Below, one piece after another: positions 120 through 50,649 of a stretch of 64,000 nt of DNA. The stretch spans positions 31,806,001 through 31,870,000 of the forward strand of contig OZ024758.1 in assembly GCA_964016885.1 (NCBI GenBank), written 5' to 3'. Every line of letters starts with the position of its first letter. Within the stretch, counting starts at the first letter, position 1. The translations under genes were made by a program, and so were the position numbers. Under the pieces are notes generated by a model that searched no databases, was not told where the DNA came from, and saw only the letters and a list, made by a program, of their open reading frames with translations. Origin of the DNA: Eledone cirrhosa. Its lineage: Eukaryota.

Positions 120-240
120 ATTAAATACGTAGCATAATCTTAATTCAATATATTGTGTCGTCATAACCATTTATTATATGCTAATTATCAATCCTGTAAA
201 TGTTGTACATGTGAGTGTGTATGTATATAACGTGCTGAAT
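120..240 (+). promoter_or_regulatory. Diverged direct copy of the U6 proximal promoter (P'), present in all 19 unit copies
   Basis: Colinear with 1393-1515: attgtg.cgt.ataa, atatgctaatt (176-186 vs 1451-1461), atcct..aaat.ttgtaca, tatgtatataa (220-230 vs 1497-1507). Function is untested. Confidence 0.7.
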
Positions 241-252
241 TGTCACTTCATC

Positions 253-419
253 ATATGCCTAATAAGAAGAAGCAATGTAAAAACAGTAATGGTCTGGTTT
301 CTATGTTGGTGTTAACAACCATATCTCCGTTTAATGTCTATCTGATATCTTTAGAATACAATACATCGTATAATGTAGTCTCAGATATATTATGACAGAA
401 GTGAAGATAAGATGTTTTT
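253..419 (+). ncRNA. Hypothetical ~165-nt Pol III transcript downstream of P' (unknown RNA; repeated in every unit)
   Basis: Start inferred ~30 nt after the TATA at 224. The first run of 4 or more T is T5 at 415-419. Internal stems tatctga/tcagata and tacat/atgta. No recognisable RNA family. Confidence 0.3.
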
Positions 420-1362
420 ATTGTTTGAACTCTTTTCAAACTGGATCAGCTCTCTCACGACAGAGAGGGAGATAACAACAACGACTACAGACAGATAAGA
501 TTTACTTTCTTCTAATATCGTTTCAATATTCTATAAAGGTATTCTCTCCATTTATTGTAAGTGTATTTCATATTGCTTAAACTCCGAAAACTTACGAAGA
601 TCAGAAACGGTATTTATGATTCACCAGATTTTAGTTAGTGCTACCTCCCTCACCAAATTTGTTTCGTCCTCATTTTCTCAATAATACATGTTTTTTACCT
701 GAAATCTTTCAGAGACACAGTTTCGAACATATAGATTACGATTTGTTCGATAGATTTCCTTAAAAAACTATTTATTTATCGTATTTATTAATTTGTTTTC
801 TGTTTTTTAAATATAAAAATATTGTGTTTGTATATAAAATCTGTGACATCACCATTACCTGATAGTGTTTAGACATTTTCTCAAAGTATTTGCTCCATTT
901 ACTTGAATTATATATCATATTGCTACCAGATCTTAAATTTACAACAGACAGAGAAAGATGATATATATTATTACAGTTATGCACAAATGTTATCTGTACT
1001 TTAGAAATGGTGCATATGTAAATTCCATGACAAAATATATTCATTATAGAGAAAATAAAGAGGAAGTTAAATTTGGAGGGATGGCATTAAAGTGTAGTTT
1101 TGCAGAAAATCCAATTCTAATCTGTATAAGCTGTAGGAGTTTAAGGAATATGATGTATTTATAGTTTAAATGAAGGGGGCAAAGAATAACTTGGTTAAAC
1201 AACTTCAGAGCAGGAAACATTGATAATTTGTAGTAATTGTTGTTATCTCCCTTTCTTCCTTGGTAGAACAGACCCATGTTGAAAGTCATAACAACATCCA
1301 ATTTCCAATTCTGTCATATTGTACCCGAGACTACATTATACAATGTATTCTTTTCTAAAGAC
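345..1362. repeat. Degenerate ~1-kb palindrome (arms ~345-840 and ~905-1362) in every unit
   Basis: Reverse-complement anchors: 368-382/1327-1341 (15/15), 466-481/1237-1252 (16/16), 568-585/1136-1153 (17/18), all centred near 860. Confidence 0.85.
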
Positions 1363-1530
1363 AATAAATATGTAAATACAAATGCCATATCACTATTAAT
1401 TACGTGACACAATCATCAGTTTATTTATTGTGACGTAATAAACTTTTATCATATGCTAATTCGCTATCCTAGAAATTTTGTACAAAGAGGTTAGAGTATG
1501 TATATAAAGTGTTGTTTACCAGAAGCCATT
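1327..1530 (+). promoter_or_regulatory. U6 type-3 Pol III promoter (ACTACA SPH-like motif ~-200, ATGCTAAT octamer-like -78, putative PSE, TATA at -30)
   Basis: TATATAAA at 1501 is exactly 30 nt before U6 +1. The SPH, octamer and PSE assignments rest on position and resemblance only. Confidence 0.7.
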
Positions 1531-1554
1531 GTACTAGCTACGGCAGTACATATT

Positions 1555-1587
<33 letters not shown>

Positions 1588-1637
1588 GGCCCCTGCGCAA
1601 GGATGACACGCAAATTCGTGAAGCGTTCCATATTTTT
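1531..1637 (+). ncRNA. U6: U6 snRNA (copy 1, A6 variant)
   Basis: Matches metazoan U6: 5' stem-loop, ACAGAGA box, AGC triad, ISL, T7 terminator. Confidence 0.98.
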
Positions 1638-10547: not shown

Positions 10548-10724
10548 CTACTTTAGACACAAGGCCAGCAATTATCCAGTACATTACTGGTACTTTATTT
10601 TATCGACCTCGTAAGGATGAAAGGCAAAGTCAACCTCGGCGGGATTTGAACTCAGATCGTAAAGGGACGTAACTATGCTGGAAAGCATGGCGTCCGACCC
10701 TCTACCGATACTGCCAATCCACCG
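10548..10724 (-). mobile_element. tRNA-derived SINE (family 1) inserted in the U6 promoter
   Basis: Minus-strand A box TGGCAGTATCGG and B box GAGTTCAAATCC. 15-bp TSD tataaaatgttgttt at 10533-10547 and 10725-10739. Confidence 0.92.
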
Positions 10725-10859: not shown

Positions 10860-12587
10860 TTAATTTCATGTAATATTTATAACATTATATTCGTAAGATA
10901 CTATTAAATTAATACGTTTACAATTCATTGAATAACATGTAATCATTTTTACAGTTGAGGGTCACATCACCCCATCTGATTATGTCTCATATATAATATT
11001 GTTAATAATCTATAATTTTAATGACATTTTACACCAATACCTTTTCCATGATATACATTACAATTAGGTTGATAAAGGTTTTATTTTTTCTTCAGTTAAT
11101 TCACGTATTTTTAATACTTTCATTATTCTATATATTTATGAACGTTAAATCTCATTTCCTCCAACTACGTCTAGGAATTAAATACCTAACATAATCTTAA
11201 TTCAATATATTGTGTCGTCATAACCATTTATCATATGTTAATTATCAATCCTGTAAATGTTGTACATGTGAGTGTATATGTATATAACGTGCTGAATTGT
11301 CACTTCATCATATGCCTAATAAGAAGAAGCAATGTAAAAACAGTAATGGTTTGGTTTCTGTATTGGTATTAACAACCATATCTCCGTTTAATGTCTATCT
11401 GATATCTTTAGAATACAATACATCGTATAATGTAGTCTCAGATATATTATGACAGAAGTGAAGATAAGATGTTTTTATAGTTTGAATTCCTTTCAAACTG
11501 GATCAGCTCTGTCACGACAGAGAGGGAGATAACAACAACGACTACAGACAGATAAGATTTACTTTCTTCTAATATCGTTTCAATATTCTATAAAGGTATT
11601 CTCTCCATTTATTGTACGTGTATTTCATATTGCTTAAACTCCGAAAACTTACGAAGATCAGAAACGGTAATTCTAATTAATCAGATTTTAGTTAGTGCTA
11701 CCTCCCTCACCAAATTTGTTTCGTCCTCATTTTCTCAATAATACATGTTTTTTACCTGAAATCTTTCAGAGACACAGTTTCGAACATATAGATTACGATT
11801 TGTTCGATAGATTTCCTTTAAAAACTATTTATTTATCGTATTTATTAATTTGTTTTCTGTTTTTTAAATATAAAAATATTGTGTTTGTATATAAAATCTG
11901 TGACATCACCATTACCTGATAGTGTTTAGACATTTTCTCAAAGTATTTGCTCCATTCACTTGAATTATATATCATATTGCTACCAGATCTTAAATTTACA
12001 ACAGACAGAGAAAGATGATATATATTATTACAGTAATGCACAAATGTTATTTTTATTTTAGAAATGGTGCATCTGTAAATTCTATGACAAAATATATTCA
12101 TTATAGAGAAAATAAAGAGGAAGTTAAATTTGGAGGGATGACATTAAAGTGTAGTTTTGCAGAAAATCCAATTCTAATCTGTATAAGTTGTAGGAGTTTA
12201 AGGAATATGATGTATTTATAGTTTAAATGAAGGGGGCAAAGAATAACTTGGTTAAACAACTTCAGAGCAGGAAACATTGATAATTTGTAGTAATTGTTGT
12301 TATCTCCTTTTCTTCCTTGGTAGAACAGACCCATGTTGAAAGTCATAACAACATCCAATTTCCAATTCTGTCATATTGTACCCGAGACTACATTATACAA
12401 TGTCTTCTTTTCTAAAGACAATAAATATGTAAATACAAATGCCATATCACTATTAATTACGTGACACAATCATCAGTTTATTTATTGTGACGTAATAAAC
12501 TTTTATCATATGCTAATTCGCTATCCTAGAAATTTTGTACAAAGGGGTTAGAATATGTATATAAAGTGTTGTTTACCAGAAGCCATT

Positions 12588-14525: not shown

Positions 14526-16176
14526 TTAATTTCATTTAATATTTATAACATTATATTCGTAAGATACACATCACCCCATCTGATTATGTCTCATATATAA
14601 TATTGTTAATAATCTATAATTTTAATGACATTTTACACCAATACCTTTTCCATGATATACATTACGATTGGGTTGATAAAGGTTTTCTTTTTTCTTCAGT
14701 TAATTCACGTATTTTTAATACTTTCATTATTCTATATTTTTGTGAACGGTAACTCTCATTTCCTCCAACTACATCTAGGAATTAAATACGTAACATAATC
14801 TTAATTCAATATATTGTGTCGTCATAACCATTTATTATATTCTAATTATCAATCCTGTAAATGTTGTACATGTGAGTGTGTATGTATATAACGTGCTGAA
14901 TTGTCACTTCATCATATACCTAATAAGAAGAAGCAATGTAAAAACAGTAATGGTCTGGTTTCTATGTTGGTATTAACAACCATATCTCCGTTTAATATCT
15001 ATCTGATATATTTAGAATACAATACATCGTATAATGTAGTCTCAGATATATTATGACAGAAGTGAAGATAAGATGTTTTTATAGTTTGAATTCCTTTCAA
15101 ACTGGATCAGCTCTCTCACGACAGAGAGGGAGATAACAACAACGACTACAGACAGATAAGATTTACTTTCTTCTAATATCGTTTCAATATTCTATAAAGG
15201 TATTCTCTCCATTTATTGTAAGGGTATTTCATATTGCTTAAACTCCGAAAACTTACGAAGATCAGAAACGGTATTTATGATTCACCAGATTTTAGTTAGT
15301 GCTACCTCCCTCACCAAATTTGTTTCGTCCTCATTTTCTCAATAATACATGTTTTTTACCTGAAATCTTTCAGAGACACAATTTCGAACATATAGATTAC
15401 GATTTGTTAGATAGAATTCCTTTAAAAACTATTTATTTATTGTATTTATTAATTTGTTTTGTTTTTTAAATATAAAAATATTGTGTTTGTATATAAATCT
15501 GTGACATCACCATTACCTGATAGTGTTTCGACATTTTCTCAAAGTGTTTGCTCCTTTCACTTGAATTATATATCATATTGCTACCAGATCTTAAATTTAC
15601 AACAGACAGAGAATGATGATATATATAATTACAGTTATGCACAAATGTTATCTGTACTTTGGAAATGGTGCATCTGTAAATTCCATGACAAAATATATTC
15701 ATTATAGAGAAAATAAAGAGGAAGTTAAATTTGGAGGGATGGCATTAAAGTGTAGTTTTGCAGAAAATCCAATTCTAGTCTGTATAAGTTGTAGTAGTTT
15801 AAGGAATATGATGTATTTACTGTTTAAATGAAGGGGGCAAAGAATAACTTGGTTAAACAACTTCAGAGCAGGGAAACATTGATAATTTGTAGTAATTGTT
15901 GTTATCTCCCTTTCTTCCTTGATAGCACAGACCCATGTTGAAAGTCATAACAACATCCAATTTCCAATTCTGTCATATTGTACCCGAGACTACATTATAC
16001 AATGTCTTCTTTTCTAAAGACAATAAATATGTAAATACAAATGCCATATCGCTATTAATTACGTGACACAATCATCAGTTTATATATTGTGACGTAATAA
16101 ACTTTTATCATATGCTAATTAGCTATCCTAGAAATTTTGTACAAAGGGGTTAGAGTATTTATATAAAATGTTGTTT

Positions 16177-16488: not shown

Positions 16489-18216
16489 TTAATTTCATGT
16501 AATATTTATAACATTATATTCGTAAGATACTATTAAATTAATACGTTTACAATTCATTGAATAACATGTAATCATTTTTACAGTTGAGGGTCACATCACC
16601 CCATCTGATTATGTCTCATATATAATATTGTTAATAATCTATAATTTTAATGACATTTTACACCAATACCTTTTCCATGATATACATTACAATTAGGTTG
16701 ATAAAGGTTTTATTTTTTCTTCAGTTAATTCACGTATTTTTAATACTTTCATTATTCTATATATTTATGAACGTTAAATCTCATTTCCTCCAACTACGTC
16801 TAGGAATTAAATACCTAACATAATCTTAATTCAATATATTGTGTCGTCATAACCATTTATCATATGTTAATTATCAATCCTGTAAATGTTGTACATGTGA
16901 GTGTATATGTATATAACGTGCTGAATTGTCACTTCATCATATGCCTAATAAGAAGAAGCAATGTAAAAACAGTAATGGTTTGCTTTCTGTATTGGTATTA
17001 ACAACCATATCTCCGTTTAATGTCTATCTGATATCTTTAGAATACAATACATCGTATAATGTAGTCTCAGATATATTATGACAGAAGTGAAGATAAGATG
17101 TTTTTATAGTTTGAATTCCTTTCAAACTGGATCAGCTCTGTCACGACAGAGAGGGAGATAACAACAACGACTACAGACAGATAAGATTTACTTTCTTCTA
17201 ATATCGTTTCAATATTCTATAAAGGTATTCTCTCCATTTATTGTACGTGTATTTCATATTGCTTAAACTCCGAAAACTTACGAAGATCAGAAACGGTAAT
17301 TCTAATTAATCAGATTTTAGTTAGTGCTACCTCCCTCACCAAATTTGTTTCGTCCTCATTTTCTCAATAATACATGTTTTTTACCTGAAATCTTTCAGAG
17401 ACACAGTTTCGAACATATAGATTACGATTTGTTCGATAGATTTCCTTTAAAAACTATTTATTTATCGTATTTATTAATTTGTTTTCTGTTTTTTAAATAT
17501 AAAAATATTGTGTTTGTATATAAAATCTGTGACATCACCATTACCTGATAGTGTTTAGACATTTTCTCAAAGTATTTGCTCCATTCACTTGAATTATATA
17601 TCATATTGCTACCAGATCTTAAATTTACAACAGACAGAGAAAGATGATATATATAATTACAGTAATGCACAAATGTTATTTTTATTTTAGAAATGGTGCA
17701 TCTGTAAATTCTATGACAAAATATATTCATTATAGAGAAAATAAAGAGGAAGTTAAATTTGGAGGGATGACATTAAAGTGTAGTTTTGCAGAAAATCCAA
17801 TTCTAATCTGTATAAGTTGTAGGAGTTTAAGGAATATGATGTATTTATAGTTTAAATGAAGGGGGCAAAGAATAACTTGGTTAAACAACTTCAGAGCAGG
17901 AAACATTGATAATTTGTAGTAATTGTTGTTATCTCCTTTTCTTCCTTGGTAGAACAGACCCATGTTGAAAGTCATAACAACATCCAATTTCCAATTCTGT
18001 CATATTGTACCCGAGACTACATTATACAATGTCTTCTTTTCTAAAGACAATAAATATGTAAATACAAATGCCATATCACTATTAATTACGTGACACAATC
18101 ATCAGTTTATTTATTGTGACGTAATAAACATTTATCATATGCTAATTAGCTATCCTAGAAATTTTGTACAAAGGGGTTAGAATATGTATATAAAGTGTTG
18201 TTTACCAGAAGCCATT

Positions 18217-22584: not shown

Positions 22585-23670
22585 TCTATATATATAAAAC
22601 TGTGGTTGTCTGTCTGTCTATCGATTTTTGGCACACATCTCCTCTTAGAATCTCTCACGGAATTGCACCGAAATTGCTATACTTGTACATTGAGCCCTAG
22701 CGAAGACATCGGAAAAAAAAAATTTCAAATTGACCCACCCTATGTCACGAAATCGAATATAATGTATCGATTTTTGAGCGTAAGTTATCAGTTATTTCCC
22801 TTTGTTCTGTTTACATTGAGCGTCTTACGTAAAAAATTACGCTGGCTTTCTCAGCGTTCGAGCCAGCAAAATATTGACCTGCAAAGTTCATCAGTTCGAA
22901 CACTAAGCTTCCGTTTTGCTTCATTTCCATTTAAAAGCATTTTAAAACAATATTTTTACTTGAAAACAAGTCTATTTAAAGACTACGTAAAACAAGCAAA
23001 TATTTCAGGCGTGCAGACAGATAGTCGTGCAGAGAGGTGATATAGGCGTGCAGACAGACATAACTGATAATTTGGTTACGCTAATGTTTTTCTCTGCGTT
23101 GCAGTGTTTACATTTTCGATCTTTGTTAATAAATAACCAGTGCAGTTTTTATCCCCAGCATCCTCTTTTATTATAACATTCGGGTTATCGTTATGTTTTC
23201 TTAACTTCATAAGGCATATTGTTGGTTGAGGGAATATTAATCAAAAACACCACATGCAAGTCTGCACAGTAGACACTACAGTTTTTAAGCCAAAAAAGAA
23301 ACTTAACATTGTAACTTTAACACAGCTACTGAGCGACCCCGAGCAACGCCGGGCTTTACTGCTAGTAACTGATAATTTGGTTACGCTAATGTTTTTCTCT
23401 GCGTTGCAGTGTTTACATTTTCGATCTTTGTTAATAAATAACCAGTGCAGTTTCTATCCCCAGCATCCTCTTTTGTTATAACATTTGGGTTATCGTTATG
23501 TTTTCTTAACTTCATAAGGCATATTGTTGGTTGAGGGAATATTAATCAAAAACACCACATGCAAGTCTGCACAGTAGACACTACAGTTTTTAAGCCAAGA
23601 AAGAAACTTAACATTGTAACTTTAACACAGCTACTGAGCGACACCGAGCAACGCCGGGCTTTACTGCTAG
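22585..23670 (+). mobile_element. Non-autonomous Helitron with a tandemly duplicated 305-bp 3' end
   Basis: Starts TC and ends CTAG. Inserted between A and T of ttcaa^tattc with no TSD (empty site in other units). Subterminal GC hairpin ccgagcaacgccggg. 23061-23365 is repeated at 23366-23670. Confidence 0.9.
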
Positions 23671-49097: not shown

Positions 49098-50649
49098 CTT
49101 ATATAAAGGAGAGTGGGGGGAGGAGACAGTCATTGTCTTATATAAAGGAGAGTGGGGGGAGGAGACAGTCATTGTCTTATATAAAGGAGAGTGGGGGGAG
49201 GAGACAGTCATTGTCTTATATAAAGGAGAGTGGGGGGAGGAGACAGTCATTGTCTTATATAAAGGAGAGTGGGGGGAGGAGACAGTCATTGTCTTATATA
49301 AAGGAGAGTGGGGGGAGGAGACAGTCATTGTCTTATATAAAGGAGAGTGAGGGGAGGAGACAGTCATTGTCTTATATAAAGGAGAGTGGGGGGAGGAGAC
49401 AGTCATTGTCTTATATAAAGGAGAGTGGGGGGAGGAGACAGTCATTGTCTTATATAAAGGAGAGTGGGGGGAGGAGACAGTCATTGTCTTATATAAAGGA
49501 GAGTGAGGGGAGGAGACAGTCATTGTCTTATATAAAGGAGAGTGGGGGAGGAGACAGTCATTGTCTTATATAAAGGAGAGTGTGAGGAGGAGACAGTCAT
49601 TGTCTTATATAAAGGAGAGTGAGGGGAGGAGACAGTCATTGTCTTATATAAAGGAGAGTGAGGGGAGGAGACAGTTATTGTCTTATATAAAGGAGAGTGA
49701 GGGGAGGAGACAGTCATTGTCTTATATAAAGGAGAGTGAGGGGAGGAGACAGTCATTGTCTTATATAAAGGAGAGTGAGGGGAGGAGACAGTCATTGTCT
49801 TATATAAAGGAGAGTGAGGGGAGGAGACAGTCATTGTCTTATATAAAGGAGAGTGAGGGGAGGAGACAGTCATTGTCTTATATAAAGGAGAGTGAGGGGA
49901 GGAGACAGTCATTGTCTTATATAAAGGAGAGTGAGGGGAGGAGACAGTCATTGTCTTATATAAAGGAGAGTGAGGGGAGGAGACAGTCATTGTCTTATAT
50001 AAAGGAGAGTGAGGGGAGGAGACAGTCATTGTCCTTATATAAAGGAGAGTGAGGGGAGGAGACAGTCATTGTCTTATATAAAGAGAGTGAGGGGAGGAGA
50101 CAGTCATTGTCTTATATAAAGGAGAGTGAGAGGAGGAGACAGTCATTGTCTTATATAAAGGAGAGTGAGGGGAGGAGACAGTCATTGTCTTATATAAAGG
50201 AGCAGTGAGGGGAGGAGACAGTCATTGTCTTATATAAAGGAGAGTGAGGGGAGGAGACAGTCATTGTCTTATATAAAGGAGAGTGAGGGGAGGAGACAGT
50301 CATTGTCTTATATAAAGGAGAGTGAGGGGAGGAGACAGTCATTGTCTTATATAAAGGAGAGTGAGGGGAGGAGACAGTCATTGTCTTATATAAAGGAGAG
50401 TGAGGGGAGGAGACAGTCATTGTCTTATATAAAGGGCAGTGAGGGGAGGAGACAGTCATTGTCTTATATAAAGGAGAGTGAGGGGAGGAGACAGTCATTG
50501 TCTTATATAAAGGAGAGTGAGGGGAGGAGACAGTCATTGTCTTATATAAAGGAGAGTGAGGGGAGGAGACAGTCATTGTCTTATATAAAGGAGAGTGAGG
50601 GGAGGAGACAGTCATTGTCTTATATAAAGGGCAGTGAGGGGAGGAGACA
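49098..50649. repeat. 39-bp minisatellite (~40 copies) running into an assembly gap
   Basis: Unit cttatataaaggagagtg(g/a)ggggaggagacagtcattgt. Confidence 0.97.

Follow-up and report, generated by a model that had tools for sequence, protein, structure and literature searches.

Does every unit of a U6 snRNA gene array contain a second promoter of the U6 type, and does this promoter direct an RNA of its own? A first-pass annotation of the 64,000-nt stretch of DNA analysed here (the window) had proposed a hidden Pol III promoter in each repeat unit, which might either drive an undescribed RNA of about 165 nt or serve as a decoy site for SNAPc and TBP. A covariance-model search of the window identified 18 U6 genes, and U6 was the only Rfam family to reach the gathering threshold. 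The genes belong to a tandem array of units of ~1.8 kb, near-identical when compared with one another, which fills the first 35.6 kb of the window within a genome of 3.0 Gb. The array extends a further 27 kb to the left of the window and comprises a total of 33 forward units (32 with a U6 gene) and one inverted unit.

Table 1. Features of the U6 array unit and their coordinates in the window.
Feature	Position	Strand	Remarks
P', paralogue of the U6 proximal promoter (1395-1514)	120..237	+	93/118 aligned columns identical between array-majority sequences, one gap
P' copy of the upstream box	177..188	+	8/9 invariant positions kept, final G changed to T
P' TATA box	224..231	+	47 nt after box start
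Unique segment	238..338		no homologue found in unit, U6 or the genome candidates scored; spacer-level variation
Predicted start region (A253 or A255)	253..255	+	TATA+30 is T254
D', inverted paralogue of the U6 upstream region (983-1370)	339..746	-	275/379 columns identical, 12 gap events
T5 run	415..419	+	inside D'; kept in 33/33 forward units
Inverted copy of the distal motif, downstream of P'	466..474	-	from motif comparison with small RNA genes of the genome
Third fragment, 73% identical to 512-577	859..924	+	further trace of old internal duplication
D, U6 upstream region	983..1370	+	distal motif at 1244-1253
P, true U6 proximal promoter	1395..1514	+	box at 1452-1463, TATA from 1501
U6 snRNA gene	1531..1637	+	Rfam RF00026, 115 bits; T7 terminator
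~180-bp insertion	10548..10724		further copies in the units that begin at 14662, 22059 and 25173, and in three units left of the window

A partial duplicate of the U6 upstream region

Our analysis did confirm that P' is a true paralogue of the U6 proximal promoter with a TATA box at natural spacing. The colinear match of ~120 bp on which the annotation had built its proposal was borne out, with 74-77% identity between 120-237 and 1395-1514 across units and a local alignment score of 114 that none of 500 shuffles reached (shuffle maximum 56). All three promoter motifs named by the annotation are retained in this alignment, and the box-to-TATA distance is indeed 2 nt shorter in P' than in the array U6 promoter (47 versus 49). 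The similarity fades after the TATA box as described, with homology ending 7 nt past it, and P' is present in each of the 19 units of the window, alongside the 18 U6 genes. Genome-wide we counted 34 copies of P'. In a genome search with P' all 39 candidates were scored and consisted of these 34 copies and five matches to P, every one of them located in the U6 array. The sequence behind P' (238-345) showed no similarity to the U6 leader or gene, since 463 of 500 shuffles scored equally well. A decayed U6 gene after P' was ruled out, as no similarity was found on either strand, and so was a minus-strand promoter continuing from D', because reversed 238-345 did not match 1365-1530 (459 of 500 shuffles scored as well).

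The annotation had further noted that the 3' part of the predicted RNA is antisense-homologous to the U6 distal element. This holds true insofar as 339-421 is 80% complementary to 1288-1370; however, the homology does not end at the T5 run but proceeds for another ~330 bp to about position 746. Because D' continues this far, the predicted terminator and the antisense 3' half represent the interior of duplicated DNA and fall within the first 80 nt of a duplicate of ~400 bp. P' in direct and D' in inverted orientation match adjacent, non-overlapping parts of one block (983-1514) that ends 16 nt before the U6 gene. A second copy of the distal motif was observed inside D' on the plus strand (642-650).

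We consider it likely, at a probability of roughly 0.6, that P' is a worn copy of the U6 promoter, left over from an old duplication and inversion and carried passively by the array. A single old duplication of ~530 bp of U6 upstream DNA together with one local inversion would explain the layout of P' and D'. In the simplest scenario the duplicate would have arisen in inverted (head-to-head) orientation, and 120-338 would then have flipped locally, leaving the distal motif reversed and downstream of P'. Homogenisation of the array now likely carries P' and D' along. Weak factor binding and some leaky Pol III transcription may persist at P', yielding a short, AU-rich RNA that ends at the T5 (415) or at a T4 (433); such an RNA would be a by-product without selected sequence or fold. 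The origin of 238-338, which is not decayed U6, is left unexplained by this history.

Promoter grammar of the genome and its bearing on P'

The promoter grammar used for comparison was drawn from the genome's own genes for U6atac, RNase MRP, RNase P, 7SK, U12, U1 and U2, as well as from two solo U6 genes. For U6atac six loci out of 15 matches were read, one of which had a promoter, and 12 of 16 U6 loci outside the array were read, two of them being the solo U6 genes with a promoter. Five promoters, namely those of the two solo U6 genes, array U6, U6atac and RNase MRP, share an upstream box at -77 to -79, which we take to be octamer-like, a TATA box at -30, a spacing of 47-49 and a T-G step at the start. 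A short motif of the TCAGT type is found in U1, U2, 7SK and RNase P, located around -53 to -66. U1, U2, U12, RNase P and U6 have a distal motif, TAYCTCCCT, between -256 and -287, with fixed orientation and distance in the eight genes or arrays that carry it; it is absent from four real Pol III genes (U6atac, MRP, 7SK and one solo U6). TATA-like stretches are present in the Pol II snRNA genes of this genome as well. As a by-product, this comparison provides a first promoter grammar for small RNA genes of this genome. The two solo U6 genes have full promoters and a 5' U6 sequence unlike the array type, and they are candidate promoters for small-RNA expression in this lineage. A perfect upstream box was also seen at -276 of one U6 copy that lacks a proximal promoter.

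P' shares with the type-3 Pol III genes of this genome a TATA box, the spacing and a downstream oligo-T and has a candidate for the box found at -77 to -79, but it differs from them in the loss of an invariant G, in the lowest box and TATA scores, in the start position and in the AU-rich, unstructured sequence that follows. Specifically, on matrices built from the four non-array promoters the P' box, a putative functional PSE, scored 9.5 bits compared with 13.2-17.8 for the five real promoters (leave-one-out), and the P' TATA box scored 5.0 bits compared with 6.9-12.0. The G missing from the P' box is invariant in all five real promoters. The gap in box score is not decisive, because a minor U6 allele of the array, found in 7 of 32 copies, reaches only 10.7 bits and is thus nearly as low as P'. 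One of the real solo U6 genes likewise has a spacing of 47, the CCT that follows the box is intact, and P' and P are separated by one indel in 118 nt. Spacing is tightly kept in insects, yet shifts of 1-2 bp between species have been described (PMC1761439). At TATA+30 all five real promoters have T-G, whereas P' has A-T, with A253 or A255 as possible starts. No distal element lies upstream of P' in gene orientation, the motif being found downstream and inverted instead. The T5 run lies within the range of real genes (T5 to T9), although it is located inside D'. Some factor binding or leaky firing at P' is possible on these grounds, and the decoy site for SNAPc and TBP named by the annotation is a candidate reading of the same elements.

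P' could in principle be a Pol II snRNA-type (U2-like) promoter for a capped transcript, given that its TATA region resembles one U2 promoter (local z 3.2) and that TATA-like stretches accompany Pol II snRNA genes here. We regard this as very unlikely: the other U2 promoter yielded a z of only 0.5, P' contains the box of U6, U6atac and MRP instead of a TCAGT-type motif at -53 to -66, and the predicted RNA has no similarity to U1, U2 or U12.

Sequence and variation of the predicted RNA

The functional, undescribed Pol III RNA put forward by the annotation is not supported by our results, since composition, folding, covariation, family searches and variation within the array were all spacer-like. 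It is correct that 253-414 contains no T4 and is followed by the T5; however, T4-free stretches of 162 nt were found in 398 of 1558 spacer windows and in 12-27% of shuffles. Likewise, both of the stems that had been pointed out exist, but the predicted RNA folds no better than shuffles (z of +0.52 and -0.50), and the tacat/atgta stem is a palindrome that also occurs in the DNA element on the U6 side. The GC content of the predicted RNA is 0.29, as in spacer, compared with 0.43-0.57 in eight real RNAs of the genome. Compensatory changes were detected in none of 55 consensus pairs in 18 sequences, which are too alike for a strong covariation test. In the 5' hairpin four of six variable paired sites stay paired via G-U. 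The predicted RNA showed 14 variants in 167 sites, compared with 85 in 809 spacer sites (p 0.48), and U6 in the same test showed three variants in 107 sites (p 0.008). We thus found no sign of a structured, conserved product.

The annotation had recognised no RNA family in the predicted transcript, and neither an Rfam search nor a comparison with the genome's own small RNAs gave a family match. The Rfam 15 search of 1-1520 returned two matches at E-values of 3.7 and 4; these mir-190-like and mir-4875-like matches (E about 4) were rejected as chance. Against the genome's own copies of seven families the predicted RNA reached a z of at most 1.7. Dispersed copies of 238-500 were not found among the genome matches scored (40 of 68 candidates), all 40 of which lie in the array. 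Array-type U6 sequence, in comparison, was present in eight of ten promoterless dispersed U6 copies (12 loci read), which suggests that the array U6 is expressed. The lack of dispersed copies is a weak argument against an RNA, because only one match each was obtained for MRP, RNase P, 7SK and U12. In summary of these sequence features, 253-419 is probably not a discrete RNA gene.

This bears on the reading of P' as a live type-3 promoter of a functional RNA of ~165 nt (253/255-419), the 3' half of which would have been co-opted from inverted promoter DNA. By pairing with the upstream DNA of U6 or with transcripts, such an RNA would regulate the array much as pRNA does in rDNA. A TATA box and spacing in the natural range, a T5 run that equals the first T run after MRP, a break in similarity just past the TATA box, as expected for the promoter of another gene, and one-sided hairpin changes that mostly preserve pairing are consistent with this reading. 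There are also precedents in the pRNA transcribed from a spacer promoter (PMC6628108) and in snRNA-gene-like Pol III units (PMC1790723). Given the spacer-like properties described above, the commonness of T4-free stretches and, as a weak point, the restriction of the scored matches to the array, we consider it improbable. Equally improbable in our judgement is the broader circuit, in which duplicated and inverted upstream DNA would have created a second Pol III unit per repeat whose 165-nt antisense RNA tunes U6 output, in a Pol III equivalent of the spacer-promoter/pRNA circuit of rDNA. The pRNA contains sequence of the main promoter itself, whereas the predicted P' transcript would contain a 78-80% antisense paralogue of the distal element. 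A further parallel are the human snRNA-gene-like Pol III units such as 21A, reported from a search for DSE and PSE elements, where promoter elements likewise predicted an unannotated RNA antisense to another locus (PMC1790723). Those units were experimentally tested and target protein-coding genes according to the same report, whereas here the homologous sequence is promoter DNA of the repeat itself, and a duplication accounts for it.

Recurrence in the array and possible constraint on P'

The recurrence of P' in all units is uninformative with regard to function, because insertions that break the promoter have spread in the same way. A shared insertion of ~180 bp with a 15-bp target duplication is located at the U6 TATA box in 7 of 32 units, where it moves the upstream box and the TATA box away from U6; gene function is likely impaired in these copies. 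The insertion is presumably a tRNA-derived SINE in reverse orientation. Another insertion of 1085 bp, ending in a 305-bp tandem duplication, is present in 2 of 33 units (window 22586-23670). The array copies whatever a unit holds. At the left end of the array the inverted unit is joined to a 5'-truncated piece of U6, the breakpoint being unit position 119, where P' starts, and scrambled fragments follow; this indicates that such rearrangements recur in the array. The U6 promoter of the inverted unit has alleles in common with P' at several sites. Promoter duplicates were not found in one U2 array unit, one other U2 locus, U6atac and MRP. In its near-identical units, and in insertions and old internal duplications that are common to units regardless of function, the locus resembles passive spacer in concertedly evolving arrays, but it differs from ordinary passive spacer in that P' originates from the promoter of the gene itself and has remained largely intact. 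If P' is a relic, it cleanly illustrates that the repetition of a feature throughout an array is no evidence for its function. For practical purposes, cloning a U6 promoter from this array carries the risk of picking P' or an insertion-broken copy.

The evidence on constraint at P' is mixed. Nucleotide diversity at P' is very low (0.008), the lowest of the sampled 121-bp windows, with a mean of 0.026 and a value of 0.007 for U6 (33 units; column permutation p 0.005), and this may be counted among the signs of constraint that remain. By number of variable sites the deficit at P' was not significant (p 0.11 and 0.25). The inverted unit differs at no site in P' compared with eight in P. With 19 variants in 121 sites, however, the true promoter P is itself variable, so that this control failed; the test of array variation lacks power for promoters, and its result is compatible with constraint on P'. 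In a loose set of motifs without composition correction 28 of 29 sites were kept (p 0.03-0.08 under a neutral copy). This is superseded by a stricter test of invariant sites corrected for base composition, in which one change in 14 sites was observed compared with 1.9 expected (p 0.40) and one in 22 sites compared with 3.2 expected (p 0.15). After this correction, retention of the P' motifs fits neutral decay. Conversion can also produce low diversity and might have acted between the arms of the paralogous pair or, at the left end, between P' copies that lie head to head. In the same three units (starting at 11058, at 16687 and at one position left of the window) we observed a G-to-A change both at P' 219 and at the homologous position 1496 in P, possibly the trace of a short conversion between P' and P.

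Low diversity at the DNA elements would also fit a reading in which P' and D' are maintained as cis elements, the Pol III equivalent of the spacer promoters and enhancers of rDNA. They would be bound by the factors of P and D and would increase or buffer the output of U6, and any transcript would be incidental. The low diversity is confined to blocks with DNA elements (P' and 339-419, the latter with 0.009) and does not extend to the unique part of the predicted RNA (0.029), the distal motif is kept at nine of nine positions in D', and P' lies upstream of U6 in the same orientation. Promoter duplications in Drosophila have moreover been reported to enhance rDNA transcription (PMC1215480). We nevertheless judge such a role to be unlikely, though less so than an RNA product, since corrected motif retention is not above neutral, the invariant G of the box is lost, and the distal motif is reversed and displaced although its orientation and distance are fixed in the genes that carry it; the low diversity might result from conversion.

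The arrangement is reminiscent of rDNA spacer promoters, as in the duplicated core promoters of Drosophila and mouse rDNA and in the pRNA system, where a diverged copy of the core promoter is found in the array spacer in the same orientation upstream of the gene (PMC1215480, PMC6628108). It differs from these in belonging to a Pol III U6 array rather than to Pol I rDNA and in having one copy per unit that is split by an inversion, and it is at most an analogue. If P' does bind factors or fire, the locus would be an example of a spacer promoter within an snRNA array transcribed by Pol III; in the literature searched this design was described only for rDNA. A duplicated promoter in a U6 array was not found in that literature, which consisted mostly of open-access texts and so falls short of proving that none has been described. 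Metagenome contigs scanned for the motifs yielded six loci, none of which had U6 or extended promoter similarity.

Two further observations concern the array and its surroundings. Identical units form four pairs at distances of 12 to 15 units, as well as one adjacent pair (window 1-34528 and array DNA left of the window), a higher-order duplication within the array. Outside the array, 49098-50649 of the window is a minisatellite with a 39-bp period, 39.8 copies and 98% matches.
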